Shown: in pieces, positions 45,089 to 49,269 of the stretch
How the letters are laid out: every line of letters begins with the position of its first letter
Position numbering within the stretch: position 1 is the first letter of the stretch
DNA from: Rhodothermales bacterium
GTDB taxonomy: Bacteria > Bacteroidota > Rhodothermia > Rhodothermales > DASSAV01
Reading direction: 5' to 3'
Assembly (NCBI GenBank): GCA_035699265.1
Contig: DASSAV010000055.1
Coordinates: 1-49,822, forward strand
DNA length: 49,822 nucleotides
Program-made: the position numbers and the translations under genes
Notes under the pieces: model-generated
What the model was told of the DNA's origin: nothing
Databases searched by the model: none
Seen by the model: only the letters and a program-made list of their open reading frames with translations

Positions 45089-45118
45089 GAGAAAGCTCCC
45101 CTCCTTTCTAAGGAGGGG
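45089..45118 (-). repeat. Hairpin repeat copy A (CCCCTCCT-loop-AGGAGGGG followed by GAGCTTTCTC), oriented toward the NurA-like gene
   Basis: The plus strand reads gagaaagctcccctcctttctaaggagggg. A perfect 8-bp stem pairs 45098-45105 with 45111-45118. Confidence 0.85.
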
Positions 45119-45197
45119 CCGGGGGTGGTTCCTTGAGAGGTTCGGGCTAACTGAGTCGTTGAGCTTGCCTGCATCGTGTATCCAACCACCCCTATAT

Positions 45198-45262
45198 CCC
45201 CTCCTTGCGAAGGAGGGGAGCTTCTCTTCTCGAACCGATCATCAAGCAAATGGCCATTAGAG
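45198..45262 (+). repeat. Hairpin repeat copy B with a conserved ~45-nt tail, ending 15 nt before the hemW start
   Basis: cccctcct tgcga aggagggg agcttctcttctcgaaccgatcatcaagcaaatggccattagag. It aligns along its full length with copy C. Confidence 0.85.
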
Positions 45263-46505: not shown

Positions 46506-47024
46506 GTGTCCATGAATCGCTTTTCGTTCTTGCTCTCAGCCAGCATCCTGTTCACTGCCATTCTCATTGCGGGCTGTGAGTCCAACCGGACCCGTGCCGA
46601 CGCGCCGGGCTCCCCCACCGACACCGAGGCCGTGCACATCCCCTTCCGAAACGACGGCACGCTCACGTTCCTGCGCGGGGAGCAGGAGATCGTCACCATC
46701 GACGTCGAGATCGCGCAGACGGACTCGGCACGGGAGCGCGGCCTGATGCAGCGGAAGAGCCTGCCTGCGAAGAGCGGGATGCTGTTCATCTTCGACCGTC
46801 CCGAGGTGCAAACCTTCTGGATGGCGAACACCCCCCTCCCGCTGGACATGTTCTTCGTGAACACCGACTCGGTGATTGTGAACGTGGCCCGGTACACGCG
46901 GCCCTATTCTTCGGACGAAGTCTCGTCCATCGACCCGGCGCTGTACGTCGTGGAGGTCCCGGCCGGGTTCGCCGACAACTACGGCATCACAGAGAGCAAC
47001 CAGGTGCGATGGGAGATGCGGTAG
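46506..47024 (+). CDS. DUF192-family lipoprotein
   Basis: Lipobox LIAGC-ES. ERGLMQRKSLPAKSGMLFIF....FWMANTPLPLDMFFV....VVEVPAGF is typical of DUF192 (COG1430). The ATG is at 46512 and a GTG lies at 46506. Confidence 0.75.
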   Translation: MSMNRFSFLLSASILFTAILIAGCESNRTRADAPGSPTDTEAVHIPFRNDGTLTFLRGEQEIVTIDVEIAQTDSARERGLMQRKSLPAKSGMLFIFDRPEVQTFWMANTPLPLDMFFVNTDSVIVNVARYTRPYSSDEVSSIDPALYVVEVPAGFADNYGITESNQVRWEMR

Positions 47025-47031
47025 GATTCGG

Positions 47032-47055
47032 GTGTTCAGGTGTTCAAGTGTTAAG
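47032..47055 (+). repeat. Three tandem octamers: GTGTTCAG GTGTTCAA GTGTTAAG
   Basis: Read directly, 8 nt after the DUF192 stop codon. The related GTGTT(T)CGGGG motifs recur at 47547-47568, and as reverse complements at 47369-47399. Confidence 0.8.
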
Positions 47056-47080
47056 CACGTTCACAAAGGGACTGAAGGAT

Positions 47081-47130
47081 GTCATTCTGAGCCCCCAGTA
47101 AAACAAGCTTCCCGTCCGTGCGATCATGAC
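47081..47130. repeat. Left arm of a long-range inverted repeat. The unit itself starts with GTCAT and ends with ATGAC.
   Basis: gtcattctgagcccccagtaaaacaagcttcccgtccgtgcgatcatgac. Its partner is the reverse complement of 47851-47902. Confidence 0.8.
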
Positions 47131-47322
47131 ACCACACCGCAGCCCACAAAACCGCATTCCCCATCGAATCGTGGCCCGCGCGCCGGATGGAATCCCCGCG
47201 CGGTTGAGCGAGTGGCGCACCGCCGAAGGAGTCCCGGATCACCACCATCTCCTACGCGCCGCTCGGTCGATGTGTGCGGCGGGAAGGGGATTCGAGCGTT
47301 TTGATTCGATCTCCCTTCTTTG

Positions 47323-47350
47323 GTCCTTTCTTGGGCGAGCAAGAAAGGAC
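47323..47350. other. Perfect 11-bp stem hairpin (gtcctttcttg ggcgag caagaaaggac)
   Basis: Read directly. No U-tract follows, so I do not call it a terminator. Confidence 0.7.
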
Positions 47351-47365
47351 ATCCCCCAGGAAAGC

Positions 47366-47569
47366 ACACCCCGAACACAACCACACCCCCAAACGAAACG
47401 GCTCATTCGGTTTGGTATCACTCGTTTCAGCATCTCATGTCATTAGCAACGCAGTGAAAACACGAGCGAAGCGACTGATGAAATAATCTCTCCTGCTTCG
47501 GCCCTACACGAAGAGAGATCCTTCGCTTCGCTACTAATGACATGAGGTGTTTCGGGGAGTGTTCGGGGT
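47366..47569. repeat. Central imperfect palindrome of about 200 bp with several perfect sub-stems
   Basis: Pairs: 47434-47446 ctcatgtcattag / 47534-47546 ctaatgacatgag (13 bp); 47465-47474 agcgaagcga / 47523-47532 tcgcttcgct (10 bp); 47486-47492 atctctc / 47513-47519 gagagat; 47369-47378 ccccgaacac / 47559-47568 gtgttcgggg (10 bp). Confidence 0.8.
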
Positions 47570-47850
47570 CGAAGATGGAGCACACCCGTTCCCACCCGTC
47601 ATCCCGAACCCGGATTGATCGTGCCCAATGGCGCAGCTTCCACGTGTGCGCCTGCGGCCTCAGAGAATTGCTGGGGTGAGGGATCTGTCTAGAACGCGAG
47701 GCTCAGCATCCACCTGACGGATCCACCTTGACCAGATCCCTCATCCCGCCTCAGCCGTGCCTAACCTGGAGCGTAGTCTTCGAGCAGGGCGGCGTCGGTG
47801 AGTCCCAGCGGGGATCAGGGATGACACATAGGGGCGCATTGCGGATCAGA

Positions 47851-47902
47851 GTCATTGATCGCACGGACGGAAAACCTGTTTCCCCTGGGGGCTCGACACG
47901 AC
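47851..47902. repeat. Right arm of the long-range inverted repeat
   Basis: gtcattgatcgcacggacggaaaacctgtttcccctgggggctcgacacgac. Its reverse complement aligns with 47081-47130 at roughly four-fifths of positions by hand alignment. Confidence 0.8.
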
Positions 47903-48107
47903 ACGGGCGGAGGACGGTTTGGCAGAGCGCGTGAGAGGCCGTGCAAGTCCATGTGTTTCATAACTTACGCAATCCTTCAAGGGGTTTTAACGGAACGCTT
48001 GCAGAACGGGAAGGTACGGGGGTTGAGCATCCTTTATCTTACAGGGCCGGCCTTCTCTTGTTTGACCGGCCACTCAGTCCGGTTTAAGGCAGTACATCCC
48101 GCGCGGC

Positions 48108-49103
48108 ATGAAATCGTATCCTGTGACGAACGAGGTCCGCTGGCGCCATCGTTTTTCCATCCTGGCGGTCGTGACCGCCGCCGTCCTGGTCTCCTGGGGG
48201 GCCTTCGTAACCAGCATTAACGCAGGCCTGGCCGTGCCCGACTGGCCTTCCTCCTTCAACTCCTACGACCCGCTGAACCCCTGGCCCGAGTGGTGGACGA
48301 TCGTGCCTGTCCTGGCCGAGCACGGGCACCGGCTGATGGGCATGCTCATCGGCCTTTTTACGATGACGCTGGCAGGGTGGACCGTGCTCAAGGATGAGCG
48401 AAAGTGGATGAAATGGCTGGCGGTCGGCGCGCTGGTGCTGGTGATCCTGCAGGGTGTGCTGGGGGGCCTGCGCGTGGTGCTGGTGTCGGTCGACCTGGCG
48501 ATGGTCCATGCCTGTGTCGCCCAGGTCTTCTTTTCACTCTTAGTGGCGCTGGCGCTGTTCACCTCGCCGGGGTGGCTCCAGGCGCGCGACATCGCCCCGG
48601 ACACCGATAAGGCGGGCACCTTGCGGGGGCTGACGGTGATTTCGACCCTGGCGGTGTACGTCCAGATCATGCTCGGCGTGCTGCTGCGCCATCCGGGAGC
48701 CGGGATCAGTCCGGTGCTCGCAGGGGTCCACATCACGGGGGCGGTTACGGTGACGACGCTGCTGCTGGCGACGGGCTATTTCATACACCGTAACTTTAGG
48801 GGGCAGCGGCTGCTGCTTCGCGCCAACCGGGTCCAGCTCTCGATCCTGACGCTTCAATTCGCCCTCGGCTGGACGGCCTACCTGCTGCTGCTGGACGAAC
48901 GCGGCATGATCGTCCCGAGCAATTTACAGGTGATCGTCAATTCGAGCCATGTGCTGATCGGGGCGGCGCTGCTGGCATCGACGGTAGCGCTCACGCTGCT
49001 GGCGCTGCGGCGTCCGACACCGGTGGGCGGCGACGCGCTTCCGTCGGAACCCGTGCTGGCGGCCGAATCGCTGCTGGCGGCGGGGGGAACGAGTAATGGG
49101 TAA
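48108..49103 (+). CDS. ctaA: Heme A synthase (COX15/CtaA family)
   Basis: WGAFVTSINAGLAVPDWPSSF, EHGHRLMGMLIG, MVHACVAQVFF and SSHVLIGAALL show conserved His residues within eight hydrophobic helices. Confidence 0.85.
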   Translation: MKSYPVTNEVRWRHRFSILAVVTAAVLVSWGAFVTSINAGLAVPDWPSSFNSYDPLNPWPEWWTIVPVLAEHGHRLMGMLIGLFTMTLAGWTVLKDERKWMKWLAVGALVLVILQGVLGGLRVVLVSVDLAMVHACVAQVFFSLLVALALFTSPGWLQARDIAPDTDKAGTLRGLTVISTLAVYVQIMLGVLLRHPGAGISPVLAGVHITGAVTVTTLLLATGYFIHRNFRGQRLLLRANRVQLSILTLQFALGWTAYLLLLDERGMIVPSNLQVIVNSSHVLIGAALLASTVALTLLALRRPTPVGGDALPSEPVLAAESLLAAGGTSNG

Positions 49104-49157
49104 TGCCGAATCCGGTAAATCAGTGCTGAAATGAGCTTTTGGGCCCATCACCTCCGG

Positions 49158-49222
49158 CCCCTCCTGTCCAGGAGGGGAGCTTCTCTTTCGGAGCCGATTC
49201 AATAAATCAATGCCCATAAGAG
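49158..49222 (+). repeat. Hairpin repeat copy C with conserved tail, between ctaA and ctaB. A partial extra copy, AGGAGGGGAGCTT, lies at 49221-49233.
   Basis: cccctcct gtcc aggagggg agcttctctttcggagccgattcaataaatcaatgcccataagag, with an 8-bp perfect stem pairing 49158-49165 with 49170-49177. Confidence 0.85.
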
Positions 49223-49269
49223 GAGGGGAGCTTGTTTTGCTTCCACTATTCCTGTAGTCGCTGAACGTT

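Follow-up and report, generated by a model that had tools for sequence, protein, structure and literature searches.

The stretch of DNA analysed here (the window, 49,822 nt) is contig C55 of a 3.86-Mb, 580-contig, 93%-complete genome of a hypersaline Rhodothermales bacterium, and our subject is the tract at positions 47025-48107, which lies between a DUF192 gene (46506-47024; Pfam DUF192, E 2e-31) upstream and ctaA (48108-49103; Pfam COX15-CtaA, E 1e-16) downstream. The tract is neither a single palindromic element nor a single large RNA: it is made of two modular interspersed repeats of about 415 nt in opposite orientation, elements A and B. We read it, with a probability of roughly 0.7, as two non-autonomous mosaic elements resembling transposable elements of the miniature inverted-repeat kind (MITEs), set head to head between DUF192 and ctaA. 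In agreement with the original prediction, which saw no credible open reading frame (ORF) between the two genes, tract ORFs had no match in a Pfam scan, a codon-usage gene caller called zero genes within 47024-48108, and the single-base indels that distinguish repeat copies are incompatible with any reading frame. No tRNA or tmRNA genes were found, and the tract shows neither a sigma-70-like promoter nor a terminator with a U tail. The repeated part spans 47079-47903; the DNA on either side of it, 47025-47078 and 47904-48107, occurs once in the genome. Throughout, C-numbers denote this genome's contigs, and G001-G006 the related genomes with which it was compared.

Both elements follow the same plan, running from an outer 53-nt T unit through a cargo to an inner CTCATGTCATTAGC arm. 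In alignments of 11 A-type and 9 B-type copies with their flanks, the edges are sharp and common to the copies; the T unit has the consensus TGTCATTSYGAGCCCCCAGGAAAACAAGTTTTCCGTCCGTGCGATCATGACA, of the GTCAT...ATGAC type, and the inner arm reads (C)CTCATGTCATTAGCAGC, which in other copies opens a GTCAT...ATGAC hairpin of copy-specific sequence. A BLAST search of the tract against the genome returned 149 segments, including full copies of 47079-47493 (e.g. C540:1001-1400, C366:3340-3707 and C530:290-659) at 81-86% identity, and a separate set matching 47482-47903 (e.g. C425:3815-4233, C70:300-678 and C539:1091-1464). The modules differ widely in copy number (T unit 20-30, core 63, C/A tail 23, tail2 15, B body 9-10, 75-nt hairpin 28, and this exact central hairpin 2), and the tract is therefore a mosaic and not a single unit. 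Its parts, from left to right, are as follows.

47025-47078, unstranded: unique spacer 3' of the DUF192 stop codon, with a degenerate outer-arm trace, AAGTGTTAA...GAAGGA, in the alignment with the full copy C366:3243-3733
47079-47493, + strand: element A, 415 nt
47079-47131, + strand: left T unit, TGTCATTCTGAGCCCCCAG...GCGATCATGACA, the outer end of A; 30 loci at >=70% coverage, median identity 86%; left edge sharp in 11 A-type copies; inverted partner of 47851-47903
47132-47159, + strand: C/A-rich linker, in A-type copies only and conserved among 11 of them
47160-47358, + strand: core, about 200 nt, with a conserved fold; 62 full and about 12 partial genome copies
47359-47397, + strand: C/A-rich tail of degenerate 17-nt tandem units (CAAGAAAGGACATCCCC / CAGGAAAGCACACCCCG), a direct repeat of varying length; 23 loci
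47398-47418, + strand: AACGAAACGGCTCATTCGG-TTTGGTAT, in copy alignments the degenerate right terminus (consensus CCGGATTTGGTAT) of a core-bearing element, the terminus itself being 47406-47418
47431-47549, unstranded: central palindrome, centre about 47490; left arm CATCTCATGTCATTAGCA... the inner end of A, right arm ...GCTACTAATGACATGAGGTG the inner end of B
47482-47903, - strand: element B, 422 nt
47547-47850, - strand: B cargo, strongly self-complementary; 9-10 copies; closed by GTCATCCCGAAYCCC / GGGTTCGGGATGAC (47598-47612 with 47812-47826)
47673-47747, unstranded: 75-nt hairpin GGGGTGAGGGATCTG...CAGATCCCTCATCCC nested in B; inverted repeat of 15 nt, 93%; 28 loci
47851-47903, - strand: right T unit, the outer end of B; 20 loci
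47904-48107, unstranded: unique, single-copy region upstream of ctaA

The concentric symmetry of the tract had been noticed from the letters alone, and much of it stands. A repeat search recovered an outer inverted pair at 47092-47126 / 47856-47890 (35 nt, 80%; extendable to 47089-47130 / 47851-47894) with its centre at 47491, and its local score of 23.5 exceeds that of every one of 200 dinucleotide shuffles (12.6 +/- 2.1, maximum 22), so that the proposed GTCAT...ATGAC inverted repeat is real. The inner pair (47431-47458 / 47522-47549, 28 nt, 82%) includes the 13-bp perfect pair that was said to share the outer centre, and is indeed centred at 47490. The two repeats share a centre because A and B are opposed, nearly equal in length and built with the same end modules: the T units form the outer repeat and the inner arms the central palindrome, both arms of which are homologous to the module that precedes the hairpin in other copies of A and B. 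Minus-strand self-alignment of the tract recovers these end modules as common to the two halves and finds the interiors unshared; since only the end modules align, the halves are not copies of each other. Additional GTCAT-type units had also been listed, and these (GTCATCCCGAAC near 47598-47612 and its reverse complement at 47812-47826) proved to be the closing stem of the right-hand element. What did not survive is the imperfect palindrome of about 200 bp claimed for 47366-47569, which taken alone scores 15.5 against a shuffle maximum of 17.5, i.e. at chance level, and of which the sub-stem 47368-47378 / 47559-47569 is centred elsewhere, at 47468.5. A census of GTCAT...ATGAC units by strict hairpin detection yields only 10, because the arms carry indels, and similarity recovers the T unit at 20-30 loci. 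The motif GTCATNNN[GC]AGC occurs at about 85 intergenic sites in the genome. Within B, the consensus fold of the cargo (5 copies) has little covariation, and the nested 75-nt hairpin is also found alone, with part of it missing from three B copies.

The extensive self-complementarity of the 825-nt quasi-palindrome invites the reading, offered as one option in the original prediction, that the whole is the template of one large structured RNA. We consider this most improbable: the modules occur independently and in other combinations elsewhere, at the very different copy numbers given above, the halves fold best on opposite strands (the core on +, the B cargo, as aligned, on -), and no Rfam match emerged at E up to 10. 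Only marginally less improbable is a head-to-head join created by short-read assembly across repeats. Many of the 580 contigs do end within these repeats, and the exact central hairpin is present at 2 loci only, but the tract, bordered left and right by unique sequence, is internal to a 49.8-kb contig, and reads from other loci would not assemble here because A and B are only 81-86% identical to any other copy.

Relatives elsewhere in the genome connect the tract with mobile DNA. Full A and B copies run further out, ending in ATACCAAATCCGG at the left and CCGGATTTGGTAT at the right. A census of this terminus, allowing <=2 mismatches, found 253 occurrences of the 13-mer, where two scrambled controls gave 21 and 49; the third control proved to be a repeat itself. 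These form 62 left-right pairs lying <=700 nt apart, 31 of them 100-199 nt and 28 of them 300-599 nt in length, with elements ranging in size from 125 to 554 nt; the pairs mostly begin with ATA (50/62) and finish with TAT (49/62). The small members of this superfamily are typical MITE-like units, whose interior consists of a CTCCCCTCCT...AGGAGGGGA hairpin in some and of a long palindrome of the GTCAT type in others, and larger family members with both termini include C366:3243-3733 and C539:1059-1568. On C252, a core-bearing element complete with both termini sits inside a B element, and this arrangement is therefore a nested insertion. Patchiness, copy-number swings both among genera and inside one genus, intergenic scatter, nesting, terminal repeats and mosaicism together allow us to say with fair confidence that the tract's kin are non-autonomous mobile DNA. 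Literature searches by sequence and by topic turned up no account of the family.

Two side observations concern other intergenic sequence. The neighbouring intergenic stretches 45089-45230 and 49103-49260 of the window both contain relics of small 'type 1' superfamily members (e.g. ATGCCGAATCCGGTAAATCAGTGCTG..., and CTCCCCTCCT...AGGAGGGGAGC hairpins), which probably account for the CCCCTCCT hairpin 5' of three genes. The scrambled control motif ACTGACAACTGAC gave an unexpected 308 matches, and GACCACTGACCAC-type short tandem tracts are abundant in intergenic DNA (e.g. C162:4823-5060 and C228).

The module of A at 47160-47358, the core, escaped the original prediction and is the most numerous of the modules. 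In this genome nhmmer found 82 core matches, 62 of full length, and a covariance model of the core 74. Its 5' edge is sharp (RTCGAATC), and the sequence upstream of the 62 full-length cores is a T unit in 11, 'type b' in 20, 'type c' in 10 and something else in 21. Terminus pairs 315-554 nt apart enclose 21 of the 62; nearly all (60/62) are intergenic, without preferred orientation relative to their neighbours (same/opposite 29/24 upstream and 26/23 downstream), and repeated DNA ceases about 100-250 nt from the core. With the covariance model, three other genera of the family, related salt-loving bacteria, hold 1 (G004), 1 (G005; E 2e-15) and 19 (G006) cores, and there were 0 matches in G002, G003 and the same-genus sister G001, whose assembly is 99% complete in 30 contigs. 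A degenerate core pattern matched 21 metagenome contigs, mostly G006-like, and viral contigs held no core-like sequence. The single cores of G004 and G005 are free-standing between ordinary genes, with no family termini nearby.

Side observations on the 3' part of the core concern its length and its spread. After the core 3' hairpin (47340-47397; paralogues e.g. C52:1397-1640) follow 1 to about 5 tandem degenerate 15-17-nt CAGGAAAGCACAYCCC units that resemble the 3' arm of this hairpin and make up a small minisatellite of variable length within the element. L011:1443-1543, from another family of the order (G021), is a 101-nt 'mini' core comprising the closing helix, the small hairpin and the 3' hairpin, the last identical to that of this genome (UUCUUUGGUCCUUUCUUG...CAAGAAAGGACAU). 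As this mini version lacks the long arm and yet keeps the 3' hairpin, conservation of the hairpin motif reaches further than that of the complete core.

The core fold, obtained with RNAalifold on 44 copies, has the following parts.

47163-47171 / 47302-47310, + strand: P1, the closing helix
around 47172-47186, + strand: small hairpin
47191-47297, + strand: long arm, interrupted, with a 10-bp stem (47209-47218 / 47256-47265) at its end
47219-47255, + strand: C-rich terminal loop of the long arm, hypervariable in copy alignments
47323-47333 / 47340-47350, + strand: separate 3' hairpin of 11 bp, the palindrome GTCCTTTCTTG-N6-CAAGAAAGGAC

Compensatory change supports this fold both within and between genomes. 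Copies of this genome swap GC for AU at the base of P1 (22 vs 17 copies) and UA for CG at two other pairs, and in 27 sequences from across the genera and the metagenome 31 of 50 core pairs carry compensatory changes. Paired states fill 92.5% of alignment cells; sliding the partners by 1-3 columns brings this down to 39-48%, and none of the measures was equalled in 500 shuffles. The 27-sequence alignment was fitted to the covariance model, a bias in favour of structure; we regard the covariation as robust in spite of this because the slid controls differ and because the helix sequences of G006 are wholly different. In the perfectly palindromic 3' hairpin, covariation is equally expected of a binding site for a dimeric protein. 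Near-invariant G-U pairs (e.g. 25/25, 22/25 and 19/25 sequences) are conserved, and the fold therefore belongs to the + strand only; the alignment energy is -56 on + against -39 on -, and the window copy folds at -91.2 on + against -85.0 on -. Folding both strands thus favours + for the core and, as aligned, - for the B cargo. The terminal loop is 33-39 nt long, with 47% C and 14% G, and comes in several classes that recombine. Its longest match to its own flanks (7.9 nt) is like that of other copies' loops (7.8 nt), the same holds for its reverse complement (7.2 vs 7.3 nt), and elsewhere in the genome the loops find no more matches than their shuffled versions do. Judging from stems that are constant or compensated across at least 4 genera, the fold itself is under selection, whether it would be needed for the spread of the element or made into an RNA used by the cell or the element.

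That second option leads to a different account of the core, as a genuine non-coding RNA gene family giving a + strand RNA of about 200 nt, for which the repeats are only the vehicle. This account overlaps with the mobile-element reading, and we hold it to be possible, if tentative. In its favour are the strand-specific fold with its conserved G-U pairs and 31/50 compensated pairs, the variation of the loop beside invariant stems, and the isolated copies of G004 and G005, which lie among ordinary genes without termini. The C-rich loop could, again tentatively, be a variable recognition part that might pair with e.g. G-rich Shine-Dalgarno-like sequences, and its composition is as expected of an unpaired recognition region. 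However, neither a sigma-70-like promoter nor a U-tailed terminator accompanies it in the tract, zero copies in the sister genome and two other genera would be odd for a needed RNA, the loops are unrelated to their own flanks and match the genome no better than shuffled controls, and the palindromic 3' hairpin would covary as a protein-binding site as well. Scanned against Rfam 15, the whole window has no match that reaches a gathering score, and a scan of 46900-48250 relaxed to E 10 brings up nothing but noise from microRNA and flavivirus families (E 0.13-2.1). In the fullest form of the account, which we rate a little lower again, the core would be an undescribed structured RNA family of the Salinibacteraceae, captured and multiplied by transposon-like carriers, with the loop as its fast-evolving recognition surface. 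That three genomes of the family lack the core speaks against an essential RNA, and the free-standing copies of G004 and G005 would fit an RNA gene.

Several known structured elements were compared with the core and rejected. An integron attC site can be set aside, as GTTGAGC stands on the 5' side of the long arm with its partner GCTCGGT, the wrong motif order relative to 5' RYYYAAC / 3' GTTRRRY, and an attC array likewise, since core copies are scattered between housekeeping genes and form no cassette arrays. A guide similar to a bridge RNA is rejected because a loop matches its own flanks no better than other loops do, and a TnpB omega-RNA carrier or palindrome-associated transposable element (PATE) because there is no fixed target, no TnpB partner detected with E. 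coli InsQ as the query, and no HEARO or OrfB-type Rfam match.

A further possibility is that the units are repetitive extragenic palindromic (REP) sequences or bacterial interspersed mosaic elements (BIMEs), i.e. single-stranded hairpins handled by a REP-associated tyrosine transposase (RAYT, of the Y1 HUH class), or PATEs of the IS200/IS605 type. The genome does hold three RAYT/IS200-like genes, at C207:13653-14183 (Pfam Y1_Tnp, E 1e-5), C446:660-1175 and C499:1-459, and the strand specificity of the core fold would suit single-strand handling. Yet these genes are flanked by distinct REPs (GTAGCCGCAGGC..., GGCCCGGCCCGATGG... and GGGCGACCC...) and none by GTCAT units or the core; the core 5' edge has no fixed 4-5-nt target, just a pyrimidine-rich run; a phmmer search of six-frame ORFs with E. 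coli InsQ as the query found no TnpB homologue; and units of 50-200 nt far exceed REP size. We therefore think this explanation unlikely. Of the pile-up of REP- or BIME-like units named in the original prediction, the pile-up itself holds, the units being modular, palindromic and interspersed; the link to REP and RAYT does not, each of the three Y1 genes having its own REP type other than GTCAT. The arrays around these genes (C207:13500-14260, C446:300-1420 and C499:1-460) consist of short palindromes, respectively GTAGCCGCAGGCTTTAGCCTGCG, GGCCCGGCCCGATGGACCGGGC / GTTGCCCTTTCAGGGCAA and GGGCGACCCNNNGGGTCGCCC; because each gene is embedded in its own array, the genome has at least 3 further systems of the REP/BIME type.

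The core also has a strand bias, which would speak for single-strand handling of this kind. Its + strand lies on the C-rich strand of the contig in 44 of 54 copies, in part a matter of coding-strand composition (the coding-strand GC skew at third codon positions is -0.10 genome-wide). Once genes of either orientation are averaged, the C-rich side still carries 22 of 30 cores (p ~0.02). The shift is about -0.09 for genes that run with the core and likewise for those that run against it, and contigs with two core copies have them co-oriented in 4/4 cases. The bias is nevertheless modest, and whole-contig gene orientation leans weakly the opposite way (168 co-oriented vs 133), which disagrees with a simple lagging-strand reading. 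We rest no conclusion on it.

The mobile-element reading of the tract has its own difficulties, which weigh against it. The window copies lack terminal inverted repeats, with inner T units and degenerate traces remaining, and the way in which they arrived is deduced from relatives. Among complete relatives, the 2-nt flanks beyond the termini are identical in just 3 of 62 pairs, and a TA within ATA...TAT is indistinguishable from the inverted ends; as the ends read ATA...TAT with nothing duplicated outside, any TA duplication would be invisible. The C252 junction has a diverged target repeat of about 45 nt and no clean duplication. No transposase with matching ends was found among terminus-adjacent or multicopy ORFs of the 580-contig assembly, and the 14 related ctaA loci retrieved, the closest of which belong to Salinibacteraceae and uncultured Rhodothermales metagenome-assembled genomes at <=56% protein identity, have neither DUF192 nor hemN upstream, synteny being lost, which makes them uninformative as empty sites. 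At least 4 different upstream contexts lead us to suspect that the core may move or recombine independently of the termini, and its invariant stems beside hypervariable loops are unlike the decay of neutral junk, which suggests a function beyond the MITE label.

Taken together, the evidence still favours MITE-like elements. The superfamily would spread as DNA, its complete members bounded by ATACCAAATCCGG...CCGGATTTGGTAT, with a transposase, not found here, presumably supplied in trans and with a TA duplication possibly hidden within the ATA...TAT ends. The copies in the window are probably immobile relics, and CGGTTTGGCA at about 47914-47925, judged by eye, may be the relic of an outer terminus. 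The option of a decayed non-autonomous mobile element, raised in the original prediction, was thus essentially right, given MITE-like relatives with termini and interspersed copies, and that no target-site duplication was seen fits as well, the terminal repeats of the family being absent from the window copies.

The transposase hunt returned only spurious ORFs over repeats and one gene family, about 9 solitary paralogues with a helix-turn-helix (HTH) domain at the N-terminus, resembling that of phage small terminases and transposases, and a Pro-rich tail (Pfam Sf6_terminase, E 1e-6; PHROG 4044, E 3e-11). Four of the 9 have a core copy no more than about 350 nt away, in 3 of these with the core upstream on the same strand, and no family termini flank the paralogues, which are located as follows.

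C120:9554-10540: HTH paralogue
C209:753-1958: HTH paralogue
C245:14483-15844: HTH paralogue
C245:4813-5691: HTH paralogue
C56:7369-8085: HTH paralogue
C190:8269-8892: HTH paralogue
C327:3593-4057: HTH paralogue
C181:3-329: HTH paralogue
C41:3-395: HTH paralogue

Bacterial interspersed repeats are usually viewed as drifting junk between conserved ends, and the core module shows the reverse: here the ends decay, and a 200-nt interior holds a strand-specific, covarying fold across genera with the terminal loop alone varying. Such a pattern of constrained stems and free loops could mean either that master copies keep the fold in order to spread or that the copies are functional RNAs. Were the core transcribed, mobile DNA would have spread a large family of paralogous RNAs, something rarely seen in bacteria, and one genome would hold about 70 differently 'addressed' versions of a single RNA scaffold, should the RNA account be true. 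If it is not transcribed, the fold would be a DNA or single-strand structure needed by the transposition system, and useful for finding that system. The repeats are also the reason why this genome is in 580 pieces, and they account for other odd hairpins in the window.

Among known systems, the BIME and REP sequences of Enterobacteria and Pseudomonas resemble the tract in being mosaics of palindromic units in intergenic DNA, in a genome that has RAYT-like genes, but the units here measure 50-200 nt instead of 20-40 nt, have no GTAG-type 5' tetranucleotide, and the RAYT-like genes stand near other REPs. BOX of Streptococcus pneumoniae and ERIC/IRU of enterobacteria are modular interspersed repeats (boxA-boxB-boxC) for which stable single-strand structures are predicted and in which the number of internal modules varies. 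Their modular plan is similar and their sequence unrelated, and they differ from the present family, in which one module combines cross-genus covariation with a hypervariable loop and the modules lie within elements bounded by terminal repeats. There is also a likeness to bacterial MITEs derived from TA-targeting insertion sequences of the IS630/Tc1-mariner type, of which the Correia elements of Neisseria are the best studied: like the family described here, they are small (125-550 nt here), non-coding and intergenic, reach tens to hundreds of copies, have terminal inverted repeats, nest, and differ sharply in copy number between related genomes. Unlike them, the present family comes with no cognate transposase found and no demonstrable TA duplication, its window copies are without terminal repeats, and its 200-nt cargo keeps a covarying fold across genera. 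Within the Bacteroidota, a Porphyromonas gingivalis MITE with an internal minisatellite has been described (Mob DNA 2015, PMC4596501), and it shares with the present elements a length-variable tandem tract, here of 17-nt CAGGAAAGCACAYCCC units in 1 to about 5 copies; its sequence and host are different, and the part of that paper drawn on here reports no structured core. The tract is thus of the MITE or mosaic-repeat kind, with an unusually constrained, RNA-like cargo.

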